NCBI GenBank assembly: GCA_963514005.1 | Contig: OY740813.1 | Coordinates: 9,858,001-9,922,000 of the forward strand | Direction: 5' to 3' | Origin: Raja brachyura | Taxonomy: Eukaryota | Length of the DNA: 64,000 nucleotides | Shown here: piece by piece, positions 2,564 through 52,737 of the stretch | Position numbering within the stretch: position 1 is the stretch's first letter | Layout of the letters: each line of letters begins with the position of its first letter | Program-made: the position numbers and the translations under genes | The notes under the pieces: generated by a model | The model's database searches: none | What the model saw: only the letters and a program-made list of their open reading frames with translations | Told to the model about the DNA's origin: nothing

Positions 2564-5500
2564 GCTGGGGGGGGGGGTGGACTCGGGTAGAGGGGGCTAG
2601 GGGACAGGGTGTGGGGCAAGAGGCAGAGAAGCGAAGTACTCGGACCCAAAATGTAGGCGAGAAAGAGGAAAAAGATAATAAACAGAGAATAAGGGATGGT
2701 GGGTTTCTAAAATGTGTATATTTTAATGCTAGGAGCATTGTAAGAAAGGTGGGTGAACTTAGAGCCTGGATAGACACCTGGAAATATGATGTTGTGGCAA
2801 TCAGTGAAACATGGTTGCAGGAGGGCTGTGATTGGAAACTAAATATTCCAGGATTTCGTTGTTTCAGGTGTGATAGAATTGGAGGGACCAGAGGTGGAGG
2901 TGTTGCATTGCTTGTCAGAGAAGATATTACAGCAGTGCTTTGGCAGGATAGATTAGAGGGCTCGTCTAGGGAGGCTATTTGGGTGGAACTGAGAAGTGGG
3001 AACAGTGTAGCAACACTTTTAGGGGTGTATTATATGGGGAGCGAGAATTGGAAGAGCAAATATGTAAGGAGATAGCAGATATTAGTAGTAAGCACAAGGT
3101 AGTGATTGTGGGAGATTTCAATTTTCCAAAAATAGACTGGGAAACACATTCTGTAAATGGGCTGGATGGTTTGGAGTTTGTAAAATGTGTGCAGGATAGT
3201 TTTATGCAGCAATATATAGAGGTATCGACCAGAGAAGGGGCAATGCTGGACCTCCTGTTAGGAAATGAGGCAGGTCAGGTGACGGAGGTATGCATTGGTG
3301 AGCACTTCGGGACCAGTGATCACAATACCATTAGTTTCAATATAATTATGGAGAGAGTCAGAACTGGACCTAGGGTTGAGATTTTTGATTGGAGAAAGGC
3401 TAACTTTGAGGGAATGCGTAAGGATTTAAAAGGAGTGAATTGGGACATTTTGTTTTATGGGAAGGATGTAGAAGAGAAATGGAGGACATTTAAAGGGGAA
3501 ATTGTATGAGTACAGAATCTTTATGTCCCTGTTCGGTTGAAAGGAAATAGTAAAAATTGGAAAGAGCCATGGTTTTCAAGGGAAATTGGACACTTGGTTC
3601 GAAAAAAGAGAGATATCTACAATAATTATAGGAGGCATGGAGTAAATGAGGTGCTAGAGGAGTATAAAGAGTGTAAAAAGAATCTTAAGAAATAAATTAG
3701 AAAAGCTAAAAGAAGATATGAGGTTGCTTTGGCAAGAAAGGTGAAAGTAAATCCAAAGGGTTTCTACAGCTATATTAATAGCAAAAGGATAACGAGGGAT
3801 AAAATTGGACCATTAGAGAGCCAGAATGGACAGCTATCTGCAGATCCAAAAGAGATGGGGGAGATATTGAACATTTTTTTTTCCTTCAGTATTCACCAAG
3901 GAGAAGGATATTGAACTCTGAGGTAAGGGAAAAAAGTAGAGTAGCTATGGAAACTATGAGATTCAAAGAGGAGGAAGTACTGACACTTTTGAAATATATA
4001 AAAGTGGATAAGTCTCCAGGTCCTGACAGGATATTCCCTAGGACATTGAGGGAAGTTAGTGTAGAAATAGCAGGGGCTATGACAGAAATATTTCAAATGT
4101 CATTAGAAACGGGAATAGTGCCGGAGGATTGGCGTACTGCGCATGTTGTTCCATTGTTTAAAAAGGGTTCAAAGAATAAACCTAGCAATTATAGACCTGT
4201 TAGTTTGACGTCAGTGGTGGGCAAATTAATGGAAAGGATACTTAGAGATAATATATAAGCATCTGGATAAACAGGGTCTGATCAGGAACAGTCAACATGG
4301 ATTTGTGCCTGGAAGGTCATGTTTGACAAACCTTCTTGAATTTTTTGAAGAGGTTACTAGGGAAATTGATTAGGGTAAAGCAGTGGATGTTGTCTATATG
4401 GATTTCAGTAAGGCCTTTGACAAGGTTCCCCATGGAAGGTTGGTTAAGAAGGTTCAATCTTTGGGTGTTAATGGCGGAGTAGCAAGATGGACTCAACAGT
4501 GGCTGAATGGGAGATGCCAGAGAGTAATGGTGGATGGCTGTTTGTCAGGTTGGAAGCCGGTGACCAGTGGGGTGCCTCAGGGATCTGTGTTGGGTCCACT
4601 GTTGTTTGTCATGTACATCAATGATCTGGATGATGGGGTGGAAAACTGGATACGCAAGTATGCAGATAATACTAAGATAGGTGGTGTTGTGGATAATGAA
4701 GTAGATTTTCAAAGTCTACAGAGAGATTTGGGCCATTTGGAAGAGTGGGCTGAAAGATGGCAGAAGGAGTTTAATGCTGATAAGTGTGAGGTGCTACATC
4801 TTGGCAGGACAAATCAAAATAGGATGTACATGGTAAATGGTAGGGAATTGAGGAATGCTGTGGAACAGAGGGATCTAGGAATAACTATGCATAGTTCCCT
4901 GAAGATGGAATCGCATGTAGATAGGGTGGTAAAGAAAGCTTTTGGTGTGCTGGCCTTTATAAATCAGAGCATTGAATATAGGAGTAGGGAAGTAATGTTA
5001 AAATTGTACAAGGCATTGGTGAGACCAATTCTGGAGTATGGTGTACAATTTTGGTCACCTAATTATAGGAAGGATGTCAACAAAATAGAGAGAGTACAGA
5101 GGAGATTTACTAGAATGTTGCCTGGGTTCCAGCAACTAAGTTACAGAGAAAGGTTGAACAAGTTAGGTCTTGATTCTTTGGAGCGCAGAAGGTTAAGGGG
5201 GGGACTTGATTGAGGTCTTTAAAATGATGAAAGGGATAGACAGAGTTGACGTGGATAAGCTTTTCCCATTGAGGGTAGGGAAGATTCAAACAAGAGGGCA
5301 TGACATGAGAATTAAGGGACAGAGGTTTAGGGGTAACATGAGGGGGAACTTCTTTACTCAGAGAGTGGTGACTGTGGAATGAGCTTCCAGCAGAAGTGGT
5401 AGAGGCAGGATCAATTTTAACATTTAAAAGTAAAGTGGACAGGTATATGGACGGGAAGGGAATGGAGGGGTATGGTCTGAGTGCAGGTAGATGGGACTAG

Positions 5501-5582
5501 GGGAAAATAAATGTTCGGCACGGACTGGAAGGGCCGAGAGGGCCTGTTTCCGTGCTGTAATTGTTATATCGTTATATGGTTA
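2564..5582 (+). mobile_element. CR1 LINE, near-complete ORF2 (APE endonuclease + RT), disrupted
   Basis: ORFs 2518-3075 (NARS, SETWL, RGGGV), 2979-3509 (GDFN, LDL, SDH), 3911-4258 (KSPGPD, NYRPVSLTS) and 4383-5213 (DFSKAFD, GVPQGSVLGP, YADN). Several frameshifts and stops. Ends in a GTTATAT-type tail at about 5563-5582. Confidence 0.95.
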
Positions 5583-6566
5583 TTCTAGAAGAGAATTCTC
5601 CAAATAGTTCAGCTATCGCTCTTCCTTCTCCGCTAACACTAACAACAGCAGTTTTGCTCTGATTTGTGTCTATACATTGGTTGCATTTTCACCACAGCAT
5701 AAAACATTGACTACATTTCCAAATAAATCATTGGATTTAAACATAGTGGCACTCCACAGAAAGAGCAAGATAAATTTAAAGGAAGAACTTGGGGAGAGAT
5801 AACAAAGGCAGGGCAGTATAACAAAAACTTTTTGCTGGAAGTGTCTAGAATCAAATAATTCTACCCAAGTATTTACAAATAATAACGCCCAACTAAGAAG
5901 TTGACATGAAACACAGCTTTTGCATGAATCTTCAGGATACATGTGCACTTCCAGATTCACCCTCCCCCTCCCAATAAAAGCATTCACTGCACTGTTCAGT
6001 TAACTTTCCTTGACTAAACAAAAATATTTTTACAGAAACACGAGCTGTACAATCCCTTCGGAGATAAAACAGGCTACATTACGCAAGCACTGCATTTTCA
6101 ATGTTTGTAGCCGGAGGTCAATGATCACTGAAACTCTGCCAAGTGAATCACAAGGCAAGTGGAACAACATTCCTATCCATCCAGGCAAACAGAGCTCCAG
6201 GCAGCCTTAAAAGTCAGTATCTCCAGTAACTAGCACTGACTGTACAACACGACTAGATTATTCAACGCTGCCAGAGAAAAGTATTTGTTTAAGAGAGTCA
6301 GATTTTTTCTCTTTGTGCAACAGCAAATTGTCAGTCAAGGTTGGTTGGTACCAATCTATTCCAAGTTAGACATTGAAGCACAGATGTCAAATTAATCAGC
6401 ACACTGCAATAATGAGGAAATTTCACTCCATTGGAGGCCTGTTGTTCAGACAAAGGATTTAACTGACAGTACATTCATCTGCACACAGGGACACAAGCTC
6501 ACACATCACTATTTTTAAAAAGAAAAATCTATTTTGGGCACAAGCACCAAACAGTTTCATGTGTCT

Positions 6567-6896: not shown

Positions 6897-8472
6897 AGTT
6901 TCATGTGTCTATAAGAGAGCAATAAGAAAAAATCCAAACTTTCTAGAGTTTACAGTCCTCTAGAAAAAAAACCTTTCAATGCATTTGTGAAAGGATATCC
7001 TGATCGTAACAATTTCCAGGTGCTGCTGGTGAACCACTGTCCCCCACGCAGTGTGCCACTGTCCCCCACCCCATCCCCTCCCTCAGAGCAGCTGAACCAC
7101 CAGTAAATAGTAAATAAGTACAAGTTTATGTTACAACTTGTATTTCTTTGCAAGACCACAGTTTTTATGTTGTGAAAAATCTTAATATGGGCCATCCTCT
7201 TCGAAAGCAACAATCCAACAGTTCTTGTTGACAAAATATTATTTTCACAAAAAGAACATCCAAATGGAAATTCCAGTTAACTTGGTCATTATTAAAATTA
7301 ATTAAATAAGCTGGCAGGGGATGGACTCATTATTGAAGTGAAAAGCAACTCAATTTAACATACCATGTATGTTTTAAAAGGCACACAGTTAACAGCTTCC
7401 GCTATCTGACAAATTCACTGGGTGAGCAGAACAACGAGAGAAGTTATGGTAATTATCAATGATTTAATTGCAAACAAAATAAAACACAAATTAACCTCTT
7501 ATTCATAAATGAACAATAAGTTTTGAATGTGATGTGCATGCATAATGACCAGTGATAATCCAGATAATGAGAAAATCTGCTCTCAGTGGTGTCAGTGTGA
7601 GGTAATGATATAGCTATTGATATCTGGGAAAACAATTACCCCGTTAAAGAGCAATTACTTTCCCAAACATAAACTGCATCACATCTGGACTCACCAGCAA
7701 CTTTAAGGGAGACTGTGTGCTGAAAATCAAGGTGAATAACTGCACTGAATAACTCAGCCTGTAATGAAACGGATGTAAATGCTTTTGAAGATGATACCAG
7801 ACAAAATGTTTTTTACAATGAGGCAAAGGATTTTTATTCGATAAACTAATTTGACTGCAGAAAAGCGTCAGAGTAACTGATTAATGTAAATTCCCCCTTT
7901 AAGTTTAATTGGCACAAAGTGAAATACTAAATTTATTACTCCTGTGCCTGAACACTTGTCGTCTTGACTGTGACATATAAAGTATTCACACGGCATTCTG
8001 AAAATTAACAGAATTGTCCCAAAAGACTGCTTTATCAACACAAAATTCAGAGAGATTCTGTATTCAAATCAAGCAATCAGCATCTGACAATGGAACAACT
8101 TACTTGCCTTTAGTCAAATTGAAAGTGCAAGCAGTTCAATGTGGACAAATGCTAAGGGGAGTGTGATTGGTTTGTAGAATAAGTCCAAACAGTAACAAAC
8201 AAGCAAGTTGACTACAACCCTTCAATACAAACCTTGAAGTTATTGTGTGCTGTTAAGTCAGAGCACAAGTGTAAAGTTTACAATTTGAGTTGCCAATGCA
8301 TTCAAGTCACTGAGAGTATAAAACCCAGTCTCGAAAGGATGATCCAAGAGGAACGACCAGATAAGTTTAAGATCCTTAATATCATGCGGGAAATACATTG
8401 TAACAGAGGAAAAAAACAAGCTAACAAAAAATGTGCGGAACGGTATCCAGGGCTGGCAAGATGAAAATCATA

Positions 8473-9582
8473 TCATATCCTTATTAAAACTCTGATCTTG
8501 TGTGTGTATATGTGGTTGTCTTTACATATTCGCACAAAAACACTATACAGTAACGATTACATTTTTACATATTCTGATTGACATTTTTCCCCTCTAGACA
8601 GAGAGCACCTTCACTGAAGATTTTATGCTTTATTCCTCGACTTATTACTGATTAAAAGTTTAAAAAAATCAAAATACTTGAATTTAAAACGTCCAGTTTC
8701 AACTGATGATGTCACAATGGTCGGCTAGCAGTGATCAGCTTTACTGAAGATTTCAGCCTATATTTCGCATGTTATTCGCAATTAAGGTTTTAAAAATGCC
8801 AACTTTAACAAGATTTTTACATATTCTGATTCACATTTTTCCCTCTAAGCAGAGATCACCTTCACTGACCATTTTATGCTTTATTTCTTGACTTATTACT
8901 GATTAAAGTTTTTTTTTAAATCAAAAGACTTTGAATTTAAAACGACCAGCTTCAACTGATGACGCCACAATGGCTCGGCTAGCAGCGATCAGCTTCACTG
9001 AAGATCGATACAAAGTTGCAAGACAGAAACACTGAACTTTTCACCTCAATGGGATTTTTCAACAGGAGGGGAAGGGCCAATTGGTATTGCAGTTGGAACT
9101 GGTGCGGCAGGCAGGGGAAGTGCAATTGGAATTTTTTTTTTAAGTCCACTGCTGAGGGAGGTGGGGGGGTGCTGGAATCTTACGTTCGGGAACGTGTTAA
9201 GTTGCATTGGGGGAACGGCTGAGTGGTGGAATATTGCGTTGGGAGCCCACACCATTAGTGGAGCAGATATATTCTGATTCGCATTTAAAAACCTTTAAAA
9301 TCATTCCTGCCAGCTTCCAACACACTTCGATAAAATGTTGCGACACAGGAACACTCTGAACTTTTCACTTCACAGGAGGGGGAGGGCGAATTGCTATTGT
9401 AACACGCAGGGGAGGTGCAATTGGATTTTATTTTTAAAGCCCACTGCTGAGGGAGGCAGGGGAGTGCTGGAATCTTACATTCATGAACTGCTTGAGTTGG
9501 AGGACCACGCCTCCCGTGGGCGCTACGGGTAGGGAACGGGTGCGTTGGGGGAGCAGACCCAACAGGTCTGCACTTGGTCTAG
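8473..9582 (+). mobile_element. Non-autonomous Helitron
   Basis: 3' hairpin GCAGACC-caaca-GGTCTGC, then ACTTGGTCTAG|T (9579-9583). 5' A|TC...TTATTAAAACTCTGATC start is approximate. No TSD. Internal tandem duplications. Confidence 0.75.
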
Positions 9583-45256: not shown

Positions 45257-47390
45257 AGTCCTTAAGGGGAGCAGCAATTCAGTTGCACTTCTTCCAATTT
45301 AGTGTATTGCATTTGGTGCTCACGATGGGGTGTCCTCTGCAATGGAGAAACTAAAGATTAGGTAACTGCTTCGCTGAACACCTCTGTGCAGTCCATAGGG
45401 TAAATTCTGGCTTTCAATTGGTGGTGCCTTTAATGCTCTATCCCACTCCTGCTCTCACATATCTGTCTAGCTTCTGGCATTGTTCAATAAGCTCTTCTGT
45501 CACTATTAAATTGTGGAGTCACAGGTACTAGCCCAACTAGCTAGCCAGATGGAAAATATAGACTTTGATTCTCAATATTAAATTCAATAATTTCAGATTA
45601 TTTGCATTCTCAGTTGGAATCAAAACTAGCCAGTTTTTTGTCAAGTTATCTATTTGTCACATTAAGTCATTTTTTTCCTCTCCATTGACACTGATCTGCT
45701 GGATACCTCCAACATTCTCCTTTTGCTTTCATGATCAGCACCATTGTACAGTAATGCAGCCAGTGCAGCTGCTACTTTGCATCTGCAGTGACTTGGCTTC
45801 AATACAGAGAGGATAGGTTCTATTTGTTCTCCCCCACCCTCTCTACATCTTGAAACTTGCTTGTTTTCTCACTTTCCAATTCTGTTGATGGGCCTTGGAC
45901 CTGAACATTAACTCTATTTTTCTTTGCTGATGTTCCCTGATTTGCCGCATACTTTCTACTTTGATTACAGATTTCCGGCACCTGTAGTTTTTTGTTTGTT
46001 TGTTTGCTGTGCACAACAAGATCCCAGATAAATCCATGATCCAAGCCTATACCCACTATGACAACTGATGTACTTTTGTACTGTTGTCAGCGCTGTATTT
46101 CAGGTGAGATGTTGAATGAAGACTTTTAAAGACTTCTATTTGAAGAAGAAAATTGCATTCTATCCAGTGCCTTGGGCCAATATTTGCTGATCGAGTTTGA
46201 ATAGAACAAGAAAATTGTTTAGTTAGATGCTGCATGGGGAAGGATGCTAAACACAATTTAGCCGGCATGTAAATGCCGACACTTAAAATAAATACCTTAA
46301 TTGGATGTAAAGTACTTGCATTGTCCTGTTGTTATGAAAGGCTTCAAGCCTTTCTTCACATGAAAGATCAATACAAAATTAACTTCTGAATTAATTTAGT
46401 TGTTCATTTTCTTGGGCAAGATTTGAGAGCCAACGAAAAACTATGCAGATGCTGGAAATCTAAATTTATTTCATGTAGTTATGAAAATTGACATGTTATT
46501 AATCGATCTTACTCCAAGTTGTATTAACTGCTTTATTTTAAGAAAAAGGAAGGAAATTATTTGGTAAGTAATTCAGGCCAGCTGGCCAGCATGGGAAGCA
46601 TTAATTATCATTGTCTGCTCAAACAGCATATAGTACTCTGAATCAGCTGAGCCAATTAAGGTAATCTTCAGTCTGATGGCCAGGAGAAGCCCCTGGGGTG
46701 TAGGCTATGTGCTTTTTGCATAATGATTACCCACCTGCACTGTGCTTTCCTTGTAACATCATGACCCTATGAATCTGATCAATTGGAACTTGTTCATCTA
46801 AGCCGATGGGGACATTTCATGCCTTCCATTTAAAAAACACCTGAAATATCCCACCAGTAACATCACCCCCAGCTTTCCATATCAGTATTTTCTTATGACT
46901 AGTCCCCAAGTCTCGAATCTCTTCCCAAACATCTTTCTCTAGGTCACTATTCTTTCTCCAAATCCAAATATCATTGCTGTCCCCAATCCACCATTCATTC
47001 CCCACCACCCGATTCTCCAAATCTCAATGGTGTCTTTAATCATAGCTTCAGTCTTGATCTTGTATCCTATTCCATCCCTTCCAAGTTTCTCTGATCTCTC
47101 ACTTACAGAAATCCCTTCTGGACACTTTCTTGACGATCTCAATTATCTTTAATGGTGTGGCCTCATGTTCAGTCAGCTTTGCCAAGAGTTGTCAAATGCC
47201 AACTTTTGGTGTACACAATCTCAGCTTGTATTCCTGTACGGTTCTGAAGGAATCCTGCATTTCTGGAGGCACATCATAAAACTCAGACATAAAACTGAGG
47301 CTCCAATTGACATTAGAGCCCTTGGGATCTTTCACCTGGGAGAGCAGACACAAAATGGGAGAACAACTTCTCATTTTATGGCAAATAATC

Positions 47391-49540
47391 CTTTTTTTTA
47401 TATCTTTATTTATTAGTGGTACTGTAAGTTACATCAGTGTACATCCCTTGTATTGTATTACAGTAATTGTACCCCTTAATTTTTTATTTTTATTTTAAGG
47501 CTTTAGAAAAGAGAGAATAGAGAGAAAAATAGCAGCATAGAAAGTAGAAAAGTGAAAAAGAGATGTGAAACTGCCAAAGTGTGACAGAGGGAAAGGAAAC
47601 CCTTGAAGAGAAAGAAACGGGAATTAAAAGATAGACCCTGGAGAGGAAAGAAAAAGAAAGATGGAAAAATAGAGAAAGAAAAAAGAAAAGCCAGTTACTT
47701 TATTATAAACATCTCGCAAAAGGAATCTACCAACTCGACAATTTTTCTTCCCCCCTTACCAAGACCCGACACCGGTACGTTTTTAAGGTATTCTTGCACC
47801 TTATCCTTGTAATAGATTTATAAATGCAGACCACGTCTCATAGAAACAGTCTGATTTTCCTGCTAGTCAGAGTCTGATATCTTCCAAGTGTAGTATTTCG
47901 AACATAGATGAAATCCACATATTGACTGTGGGTACCGGAGAATTTTTCCAGAATTTTAAGATTAGCATTTTTCCAGTTATTAAGCCATATTCAAATAGAG
48001 TCTTTTGAAACACGTTTAAATCGGGGCAGTCTTCTGATATCCCAAAGATTATCCAGTCTGCTTCTGGGGTCAGTTTTATTTTAAATATATTTGTGCAAAT
48101 TTCAAAAATGTCAGTCCAAAATGTTTGAATTTTTGTACAAAAGACAAATGAGTGTGCTATATTAGCTTCTTGACATTGACATTTATCACATATAGGAGAG
48201 ACGTTGGGAAAACGTTTACTTAATTTAGTTTTTGAATAGTATAATCTGTGTAAGATTTTAAATTGTATTAAGGTGTGCCTTCCATTAATTGAGCATTTAT
48301 GCACATTTAATAAATACTCTTCCCACCTTTCTTTGGGAATTTTTATACTTAATTCTTTTTCCCAGTCTCTCCTGATACCATCTGTTGTTGGTATTTCTGC
48401 ATTTAGAATACTATTATATATATATGATATTAGGTTTGCTGATTCTGCCTTTGTATTCATTACTTCTTCCAGTACGTCTGGAGGCATATTGTGATAATCT
48501 TTTTTCAAATTTTAAAATAGTCACAGATTTGGAAATATTTAAAATACTGATTGTTTCCCAAATTGTATTTTAGTTGTATTTGTTTAAATGATAATAGTTT
48601 TCCCGATTCATATACATCTCCGAAGATTTTAATTCCAGCTCTTTCCCATTGTGTAAATACTTTATCTATAGTTGAAGGTTTAAATGAGGGGTTTTTACCG
48701 ATAGGAGATAAGAGAGATGCGTTTCTTAATTTTAGATTGTGTTTTATTTGTTTCCAAATTCTGATTGTACTGTATATAACTGGATTATTGTTGTAATTTA
48801 TATTATTCATTGATATTGGAGAGAGAAGGATTGCACCAATATTATAAGGAGAGCAATCCTCTTTCTCCATAATCGTCCAAGCTGGTTGTTGGGGAGAGTT
48901 ATCCAGCAATTGAATCATGTTTCTGATATTTACAGACCAGTAGTAATACATAAAATTGGGGCGTGCTAATCCCCCTACTACTTTGGGTTTATTCAGATGA
49001 GCTCTTTGTATTCTGTAGGATTTATAATCCCAAACAAAATTTGTGATATCTGAGTCCAGTTTTTTAAAAAACTTTCTGGGTAAATATATTGGGATAGATT
49101 GGAACAGGTATAAAATTTGTGGTGGAAAAATCATTTTTATGGCATTTATTCGGCCTATTAAGGACATCGGAAGCGTTTTCCAAAATTTAATCAAATTACA
49201 TAGTTTCTTAAGTAGAGGGTTATAATTTTCGTCAAACATATCTTGATATCTTCTAGTAATTTCGATGCCCAAGTATTTAAATTTTTCCGTAGCTATTTTG
49301 AAAGGAAATTGTAAAAGATGCGTAGAGTCTTTTGGTTTTATTGACATGATTTCACTTTTATTCCAATTTATTCTATATCCTGAGAATGATCAGAAGTCCT
49401 CTATTAATTTAAAAATATTTGGTATAGGAATATGAGGTTTTCCTTGGATATCCATGGATACAAAACAAAATACTCCAATAATAAAATATCACTACATCAC
49501 TATACGCCGACGACGTACTTTTGTACATCACAAAACCTCA
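47391..49540 (-). mobile_element. L1-clade LINE, 5'-truncated with 5' inversion, 14-bp TSD
   Basis: ORFs 48505-49347 (FKYLGI, LPMSLIGRINAIKM, GGLARPNF) and 47867-48508 (QFKILHRLY, CxxC...H...C). A-rich tail at 47391-47415. YADD segment inverted at 49446-49543. TSD TATGGCAAATAATC. Confidence 0.92.
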
Positions 49541-50037
49541 TATGGCAAATAATCTTCAATCTGAGTCAGACTACAGGTCGCCTCTCACCATATCACATTT
49601 TTAATGCCCGCAGAGATTCAAAAGCAGGAAGATGTTCCATTACGAATTCTGCTAATGAGTTACAGTATTATCGTCTTTAAAAAAGAGCAGCAAAAAGAGC
49701 ATATTAATGTAATCATATAGGGGAAAACTTCCTAAAATAAATCAAGAAATCAGTGGCAGATCTGTCCCCTTGATACTGGAAAGAAAATAAGTCATCACAC
49801 ACAGAGTCTATTCCACACTCTCCTCAACCAAGCCAACAGTGCCCCACAAACATTTCTGGATACTAGGGAAGCTTTCAAGACTTGAGACCAATTACTTTTT
49901 GTTGGATATCAAAAAAATGAGCAAAGGCTGTGAAACTGAATTGCAATGCCGGTCAGCCATGTTGTTACAGAATGACTAAGCAGGCTTGAGAGATTGTGCA
50001 TCGTCCCCTGTCACAAATAAGATATTTGTCTCTTTAC

Positions 50038-50134
50038 CTAACCAGTGCTCTCCTGTTATCCTCCCAAATCCATCTTTGTAGGCATCCCATCCTTTGAAAA
50101 AATCCACTGATCCATCTTTCCGCCGCTGAAATAC
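50038..50134 (-). CDS. FIBCD1: FIBCD1 internal exon
   Basis: TTTTGCAG|VFQRRKDGSVDFFKGWDAYKDGFGRITGEHWL G|GTAAAG; 97 nt, phase 0-1. Confidence 0.95.
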
Positions 50135-52737
50135 CTGCAAAAACGCAAAAAGATGCAAGGAGACTTGTGAAAATTGAACAGTCTAGGAGTGACGGAAGAG
50201 ATAAATATGATGCGTCTCCTTCCCCCATCCCAGCAAAAATTGTGGACAAATGGTTATGACCAGCATAATAAACGGGCAAGAGGAAAGAAGAATGAGAGAA
50301 CAAGTGGTACTTTGGTCTTATCTAAAAGGCAGCATCTCTGACAGTGCAGCAGTCCTTCTGGCCCACTGGGAGTGTCAGTCTGGATTACGTCTTGAAGTGA
50401 AACAAATACTTAGAACTGAGTCCTTTAGACTTGGTACATGAGAGTGTAAGGCATGGTAAAATTATTCTTGATATTTAGGGTGGGGGATTACAAAGAGTAT
50501 GGTTTATTGTAAGTCTTAATTTCAGTTCAAAAACAAAACTGGAAGGGGAACATTCAGTTCAGGATTGATATCAGCGAAGAAGGATCTCAACCCGAAACGT
50601 CACCCAATCCTTCACTCCAGAGATGCTGCCTGTCCTTCTGAGTTACTCCAGTATTTGGTGTCTATCCCCACAGCTTAATACTGTGAACAAGGTCTGGATC
50701 AGGATACAGAGGCAAAAATCTATCCATTGTTTCAGAAACTACTGAGACTGCAGTATGATGGGAGGGAATTGCTGGTTTACAAAGACTGAGCTGAAGAATC
50801 ATGCATCTATCCGTAACTTCAAATGCAGCAAAGATCTCAAACCCTCTTACAGCTAAGAACAAATGTACAGAAGTCACTGTGTGTAAAAGAAGATAATTCC
50901 CCATGGATTTTCCTTCACACTTCCACCACAAATTTGATAAACTAATCTTTTAGTCTGCCTTAAACCAGCTGCTGCTTTGAAGTGGAAGGAAAGTGTGGAA
51001 GTGCTGGATTTGCTCAGTCAATGCATGATGTCCTGTAAAGCCATGGTTGCAACTTGAGGCTTAGGCTTGATTCTGCAGTGAGATAATGATACAAATTTAA
51101 AGGCTGTGGGCTGAACTACACGTGTTGAAAGCAAAAGCAAAATAAATGGATTTCACCAAAATTGCTTTCCATTTTATGTCCTATGAAGCAGGGAAATGTT
51201 GGAGAATGGAAAATCCTTTTCTTCCCCTGTATGATTTATTTGAGGGGAGAATCAAACCTATTGGTGCCAATGCCCTTTAAGCTATCCTTTGAGCCTACTA
51301 CCCTGAAAATGTAGCAAGCATCCCGTTCCTTGAGCATGTTACACAGCTTATAATTCTACACAAAGGAAATACATTGTTATTCTGCACCCTTATGTGTTAC
51401 CATGAACTCCCAACATTGGTTGCCAGACTTGTCACTCCATTAACGACACTAACTGGCCCTATTAATGAAGGATGAATGACTTAATTTATTCAGATATTTA
51501 TATATATTTTTATATTCTATACTTAAAAAAGCCATTGCATTAAAGTGGTTAGTAAGCTCTTATTGGTTTTAATGGCAGTGGAGCTGGAATTTTTTTATTT
51601 TTTTCTCTCTACCTATGGTTTTCTAATATCAAAGTAGCAGGATATTTCCCAAATTTACTGTAATATAACCTTTTAGGGAAGGCCAGACAAGCTAGTGGAA
51701 TCATAAATGTATGAATAGCAACACTGGAGGATCGCCGTAGGCAACTGTTGAACTGTAACTTTACTTTGTGTAGCAATTTAGCTACCAAAGTTGATATTTG
51801 GTGGTATTATGAACTTTTGTCGGGGAGAGTTGTAGCAAGTTATATTAGTTGGATACTAATATATTTAATCATATACTCCATGTTTTTTTGAGCTAGTTTT
51901 CCAGGAAAAAAAACTGCAGTAATCAAAGCCAGAAAGGGTAGGATGGGCTGAAGCCCAGTGTTTGGACGTTGGAATGGGTTTTTTTTTATTCTAATGGAAT
52001 GATTTTCCAACTCCAGTGGTAATTAAATTTTTCTTTCACTCCTAGTTTTCTTTACATATATATTTTTAAGAAGTTTAAAAAGTTGAATAAAATAAACGCT
52101 TAAGAAATGAGATGATGTTTTTTTGCTCATGTGACAAAATAAATTATATATAAAATGATACACAGGGGAGAATAAGACGTAAGTTACCAAAAAACTTTAG
52201 TCGAAGGTGAATGACATTTTGTGATAAAGACTCAAGGGTGAATGACACTGAAATAGTTTAAGAAGCGCTGCTCCAGAGTATAGGATCTGGGCATCAATTT
52301 GAGGACAATTGGAGATAATGCACAAAACGAATGCAGTGGTGCAGGGTTTCACTGTGGCTCACACTGGTGTGTGTGTGTGTGTTTTTTTAAGGGATTGCTG
52401 GATAAACCAAGAACAGGCTCACAGGAGAATCTGTACATGAATGACTGCTTTCAACTGAATGCTGCAAATAGAATCTTTAATGAAGCAGCCTGAGCTCATG
52501 TAATATGATGGGTAAACCTGGGGAATTCAAACTACTTTAGAACTTTAAGTGCTTTACTCAAAAAAATCTCTCAAAATAAAAATGGTCTGCTCAGAACAAT
52601 TTGGGTTCACATGGTGAAGCAAGGGTTGATTAACAAAATTGTACCTTTGATTCATGACATAAATTGAAAAATATCCCTAGTGCATACACTGGAATTTAAA
52701 TATGATTGTTTTTGAAAGAACATATTACAATGGTAAT

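Follow-up and report, generated by a model that had tools for sequence, protein, structure and literature searches.

The window, by which we mean the whole 64-kb stretch of DNA that was analysed, contains an L1 copy of 2,150 nt whose two parts lie on opposite strands. A minus-strand body with its A8 tail (47392-49441) is joined at the element's 5' end to a short plus-strand piece (49448-49543), and the element is flanked by a target site duplication (TSD). The features of the locus are as follows:

47377..47390, no strand: TSD copy at the poly-A (3') end of the element; 14 bp, perfect, present as a single copy in the empty site
47391..47399, minus strand: extra base C (47391) and short poly(A) tail, A8 (47392-47399), read from the sequence
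47400..49441, minus strand: non-inverted L1 body with the RT end, C-terminal ORF2 and 3' UTR; family positions ~4323-6387
49430..49441, minus strand: first 12 nt of the body, repeated at the end of the inverted piece (cDNA overlap), from the sequence and the copy alignment
49442..49447, no strand: 6 extra nt (CCTTGG) at the inner junction, from the copy alignment
49448..49543, plus strand: inverted 5' piece, RT region with YADD; family positions ~4247-4334
49488..49495, plus strand: 8-nt insertion, a near-tandem repeat that could equally be placed a few bases away; none of the 28 comparable copies has it
49541..49554, no strand: TSD copy at the element's 5' end; its first 3 nt (TAT) double as L1 sequence (microhomology)

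The perfect 14-bp TSD of the original prediction was confirmed. Within the 64-kb window, TATGGCAAATAATC occurs at 47377 and 49541 only, and it is single in the empty site described below. An alternative reading gives a TSD of 16 bp with one mismatch (47377-47392 against 49541-49556). The 12-nt breakpoint sequence said to be held by both pieces was likewise found once per strand in the window, as AAAACCTCATAT at 49532-49543 (plus) and as its reverse complement at 49430-49441 (minus). The inverted piece begins directly at the TSD, and its last 12 nt repeat the first 12 of the body. No spacer separates it from the 5' TSD, and the TAT that was predicted to overlap the element is indeed common to both; since TAT begins at 3.1% of family positions, however, a 3-nt microhomology is weak when taken alone. 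The strands and right ends first given for the two parts are correct, but their left ends had to be moved. The body does not begin at 47391, which is an extra C followed by a T8 tract from 47392, and the L1 sequence of the plus-strand piece begins at 49448, not at about 49446.

The 96 nt of the inverted piece consist of 88 nt of L1 and the 8-nt insertion, and it is this insertion that makes the peptide of the original prediction change frame. At the inner junction, the six extra nucleotides complete an imperfect 10-nt tandem repeat (49441-49460, 9/10) of the inverted piece's last 10 nt; if they are read as part of this repeat, at most one nucleotide is shared at the junction. At the opposite end of the element, the A8 tract comes after the family 3' end and closes the forward segment. 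In the six-frame translation, the minus strand carries ORF2 from KPHIPIP on and the plus strand carries the YADD region. The C-terminal ORF2 of the body shows a match to zf-RVT (PF13966) that is below the Pfam cut-off. The body differs from the column majority of related copies at 52 of 2,042 positions (2.5%), and the copy is dead, with a stop codon and a frameshift. The window also holds a fragmented endonuclease/RT LINE of a different family at 2970-5213 on the plus strand (Pfam PF14529, PF00078).

Long copies of the family measure approximately 6.4 kb and carry a frame at the ORF1 position, ORF2 and an A-rich tail. The ORF1-position frame is a broken ORF of about 1 kb lying upstream of ORF2; by its look this frame may be of L1 type, but a 174-aa piece of it gave no meaningful Pfam or PDB match. 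The ORF2 pieces of one copy, L058, exceed the Pfam cut-offs for endonuclease (PF03372) and RT (PF00078). The best PDB hits of the family RT are human L1 ORF2p, with an E value of ~1e-52, versus 1e-16 or weaker for R2. The 5' end of L058 was considered as the start of the family, which would then be without ORF1; this was rejected because at least seven copies reach further and the long copies carry the ORF1-position frame. L058 itself is a 4.8-kb copy within an older antisense L1, and its flanking duplication of ~160 bp (2515-2674 and 7474-7633, 95% identical) is unusually long for a target duplication. A 22-nt motif close to the 3' end of the family is matched exactly at 620 places in the genome, so that the family has at least 620 copies. 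With regard to the host, its RAG1 is 96% identical to that of Amblyraja radiata, 83-84% to those of two other batoids, 79-81% to those of sharks and at most 72% to those of the remaining vertebrates listed. The RAG1 sequence thus indicates that the host, predicted to be a probable cartilaginous fish, is a skate. An ORF2 homologue search returned teleost names only, with 38-50% identity.

An own-genome search was performed with 49000-49543, and 40 of the 3,696 candidates were scored. In the other copies found, the two parts match opposite strands at adjoining places. The two pieces are collinear on one strand in 28 of 29 aligned family copies, where they form continuous sense sequence; the remaining copy (L021) is 5'-truncated before the piece. 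This collinearity means that the arrangement is specific to the window copy, and the concern that it might be built into the family consensus was dispelled. Compared with the family, the inverted piece shows 2-8 mismatches in ~88 aligned nt and the body 13-19 in ~442 nt. Both parts belong to the same L1 family, contrary to another initial concern, that the inverted piece might come from a different subfamily.

Empty and filled orthologous sites were found by a run search with 49380-50600, which listed 21 runs, six of which were compared with the locus; one of these, X1, had no coverage of the right flank. In organism B (X2), position 47376 is followed directly by 49541 in a single contig of 2,623 nt; 2,164 nt are skipped and 14 letters fit both sides. 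This contig is the pre-insertion site with a single TSD copy. In organism C (X5), a contig matches 49541-49689 and its loose end before 49541 is the left flank, again an empty site, so that the anticipated site with one TSD copy was recovered in two organisms. The right flank is unique in the genome (one match), which excludes a paralogous empty site there. The insertion was seen in organism F (X16), which may be the assembly's own source, and in two samples bearing another organism label, G (X18 and X21). In each of the three, one contig leads from left-flank sequence into the poly(T) side and another leads from position 49514 in the inverted piece into right-flank sequence; the L1 sequences at the two ends lie on opposite strands. 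These are short-read contigs holding 27-30 L1 letters per junction, just below the 31-letter threshold for bridging. The inner junction is spanned by no contig among those listed, outside which there are 135 further pieces. Organisms F and G share an identical outer 5' junction, no uninverted allele came to light, and an allele with the body and full TSD but without the 88-nt piece was not found in the six runs compared. The insertion probably took place only once, in an ancestor common to organisms F and G after its split from B and C.

Since both outer junctions are present in contigs of other organisms, the insertion is not an assembly artefact. We attach almost no credence to the suggestion that an antisense fragment came to lie beside a truncated copy through two independent L1 insertions or an assembly error. 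Nesting of L1 copies of the same and of older families does occur (e.g. L058 and L183); however, the piece at this locus lacks a TSD and a tail of its own, and chance would have had to place it within 12 nt of where the body starts on an element of 6.4 kb. Further, one TSD encloses both pieces and the empty site is without both, while the recurrence of the junction contigs in three runs and two organisms speaks against an assembly error.

Based on these observations, we propose, with a probability of about 0.88, that the window contains a dead 5'-inverted L1 insertion in a skate, likely generated by twin priming, and that this pathway is a rare side outcome responsible for ~1% of family copies. 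Under twin priming, the inverted piece should begin directly at the 5' TSD, with microhomology there, and the inverted and forward cDNAs should converge close to a single position on the RNA. The window copy shows each of these features. The mechanism is read from its product. ORF2p would have made the first nick in the window's plus strand, at the TSD's right end, and a first cDNA of ~2.05 kb would have been copied from the poly(A) tail of the RNA. A second nick, 14-16 nt away, would have been made before this first copy was complete, and its 3' end (..ATA) would have paired with UAU in the RT-coding part of the same RNA. The second cDNA, of ~90 nt, probably slipped twice, giving rise to the 8-nt insertion and the 10-nt repeat at its end, and the two cDNAs would then have been joined end to end. 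The first-nick site is AATC/TT, or TCTT/CA under the 16-bp reading of the TSD, and does not correspond to the human TTTT/AA consensus. CTCAT is present at 47369-47373, in the flank outside the left TSD, and at 49535-49539, in the L1 beside the right TSD; pairing beyond the 3 nt kept may have been available to the second primer. A longer primer pairing via ATGAG, 2-3 nt outside the TSD, was considered and rejected, as it would require an unexplained 3-nt loss. Fold-back of the first cDNA was also rejected: the sequence repeated would then come from downstream and not from upstream.

Two further, independent family copies are 5'-inverted with the same anatomy. In L153 (G000:C9:65375800-65385300), 2.6 kb are inverted, with a 74-nt gap, an 18-20-bp TSD and no poly(A) tail; a 20-nt re-copy of the flank is found at its 5' junction, between the TSD and the inverted piece. 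In L228 (G000:C7:56324500-56333500), an older copy (86-88% identity), 0.97 kb are inverted with an overlap of ~6-10 nt and a perfect 10-bp TSD core, and most of the ORF1 region is flipped ahead of a 4.8-kb body. Five other candidates for twin priming (L081, L147, L180, L208 and L219) were rejected, as the opposite-strand hits for which they had been flagged proved to lie inside the element or at its 3' end, or to come from a separate copy. L180 (G000:C21:32528700-32538200, near 8730-8921) is full-length with a TSD, and its last 38 nt are replaced by a 191-nt antisense ORF2 piece followed by an A-rich tail, a 3'-end inversion that twin priming does not predict. L081 (3810-3963) and L219 (7072-7302 of the oriented locus) contain tailless antisense fragments of the same family, of 154 and 230 nt respectively, with almost no loss of sequence; these are possibly templated insertions at repaired breaks. 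L147 (G000:C3:34003400-34009600) has an internal 189-nt inversion with other repeats at both breakpoints, which is likely a later rearrangement. The inversions in L081, L147, L180 and L219 demonstrate that routes other than twin priming exist in the family. Among other unusual loci, L197 (G000:C2:52359104-52377017) is a tandem array with a 5.96-kb period in which the motif occurs four times, two units are 99.6% identical and each unit has a 2-kb ORF2 fragment from a related L1 family, and L123, L125 and L132 have kept both ends with 0.6, 0.7 and 3.7 kb missing internally.

One such route could in principle account for the window copy: an ordinary 5'-truncated L1 might have been inserted first and had its first 90-100 nt inverted later, by staggered-break repair that duplicated 9-12 nt. 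The rearrangements unrelated to twin priming in L147, L081 and L219 set a precedent for this, and the two slippage-like repeats of the window copy could be repair scars. Nevertheless, we consider such a history very unlikely, for one of its breakpoints must hit the TSD edge exactly and leave the TSD intact. There was also no prior inverted repeat, since the empty site runs on into flank and not into L1, and the shared outer 5' junction of organisms F and G, together with the lack of an uninverted allele there, is hard to reconcile with a later event.

A similarly slim chance is given to a course of events with no second RT priming, in which a host repair polymerase extends the target 3' overhang on the L1 RNA/cDNA (templated insertion) and then joins it to the first cDNA. 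It would fit the extra, locally templated nucleotides seen at the window copy's inner junction and, as the 20-nt flank copy, at the 5' junction of L153, and the consulted parts of PMC4245944 link 5' extras and inversions to host factors. However, the inverted piece lies upstream of the first cDNA end and must have been copied from RNA, which needs RT activity, and we infer that the lengths inverted in L153 (2.6 kb) and L228 (0.97 kb) exceed what would be usual for a repair patch. Templated insertion and twin priming differ mainly in the enzyme that extends the second end. We retain twin priming as the preferred reading of the window copy.

The frequency of 5' inversion in the family was estimated from 200 fetched loci, of which 192 held the family and 186 had the 5' end in view. 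None of the 114 copies sampled by their 3' end was 5'-inverted (95% interval 0-3.2%), and 91 of these 114 reach at least 600 nt. Of the copies sampled by upstream motifs, 2 of 72 were 5'-inverted (L153 and L228), in a set enriched for unresolved copies: 29 of 67 and 53 of 100 listed motif hits were left out as already fetched or as collinear-looking from same-strand partner hits, five more were also left out, and L153, first seen as L024 (one of 29 loci), was later fetched on purpose. Overall, 2 of 186 copies (0.1-3.8%) were 5'-inverted compared with 165 of 897 in the human germline (Fisher p ~1e-12), a comparison in which the skate count is lowered by the age of the copies (~80-98% identity to reference copies), their frequent splitting by later insertions and the omission of pieces <30 nt, and in which the human rate refers to young insertions. 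Thus 5' inversion in this family is rare, at ~1% of copies, unlike the mammal-like 18-31%. TSDs adjacent to the 5' end have a median length of 13 bp (n=46, minimum called 8), which is in the mammalian range; 20 of these 46 start with AA and 4 with GA. The original prediction that twin priming also operates in a chondrichthyan L1 lineage is supported, and extended by the two additional copies, but the outcome is rare (2 of 186 sampled).

Of the steps in L1 integration, second-strand cleavage is the least well understood. A 5' inversion preserves a trace of it, namely a second nick that preceded completion of the first cDNA. The skate insertion, its empty orthologous sites and the two sister cases document this outcome in the skate germline, and the family provides a first rough inversion rate. 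The locus represents a known mechanism in a new host lineage; it is a well-supported example, not a new mechanism. The copy has no evident function, and the low inversion rate is more informative than the copy itself. That the family combines long TSDs with few inversions suggests that the rate is set by timing or host factors and not by overhang length. The chances seem to us about even that twin priming is an ancestral ability of jawed-vertebrate L1 elements and not a mammalian trait, with its rate set by something besides overhang length; the skate family combines mammal-length TSDs with ~20-fold fewer inversions than human L1. Among the papers listed in literature searches, none reports 5'-inverted L1 in fishes, cartilaginous ones included, in its title or abstract opening, although Ostertag and Kazazian 2001, Ichiyanagi 2007, Ichiyanagi and Okada 2008 and Kojima and Okada 2009 may already address the subject.

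For comparison with known systems, we relied on the twin-priming model (Ostertag and Kazazian 2001) as described in the consulted parts of PMC2912911 and PMC12016303. According to the same parts, 5' inversion affects 30.9% (639/2068) of human- and chimpanzee-specific L1 insertions (PMC2912911, Table 2) and 18.4% (165/897) of human germline L1 polymorphisms (PMC12016303), while a passage of PMC11484939 gives 18.7% for L1 in a pangenome. In human 5'-inverted L1, the cDNA ends are ≤20 bp apart in 46%, with a median overlap of 12 bp and a median TSD of 13 bp (PMC12016303, consulted parts). The consulted portions of PMC4245944, a cell study, report inversion only for human L1 in human cells and for one insert of zebrafish Nimb-2_DR in chicken cells, with none for human L1 in chicken cells; they associate inversions with 10-20-bp TSDs and propose a requirement for a 10-20-nt overhang opened early. 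TSD peaks of 13-15 bp are cited for mammalian and zebrafish L1 alike in the relevant section of PMC6007223. The words "inversion" and "inverted" are absent from the consulted text of PMC5381506, a review of vertebrate L1, and the term-searched portions of PMC13174262, PMC3747384 and PMC5389967 added nothing on non-mammals.

The skate copy resembles human and chimpanzee 5'-inverted L1 in that its inverted piece abuts the 5' TSD with microhomology and its forward body carries poly(A). Its cDNA overlap (12 nt, equal to the human median) and its TSD (14 bp against a human median of 13) are also similar. In contrast, the skate rate of ~1% (2/186) is far from the human 18.4% and 30.9%, the inverted piece is short (88 nt against a human germline median of 751), the nick site is not TTTT/AA and the copy has two slippage-like repeats. 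Zebrafish Nimb-2_DR in chicken DT40 cells, as excerpted from PMC4245944, is likewise a fish LINE with rare 5' inversion (one insert). However, Nimb-2_DR belongs to another LINE clade and its inversion was in an engineered insert in a foreign cell line, whereas the skate copy, of the L1 clade, was inherited within its own host and has empty orthologous counterparts. Lastly, the 5'-inverted Alu (1/5554) and SVA (4/477) insertions in the consulted parts of PMC2912911 share the anatomy and a rate of ~1% or less; these are non-autonomous RNAs moved in trans by human ORF2p, whereas the skate family is an autonomous L1 and yet has a low rate.
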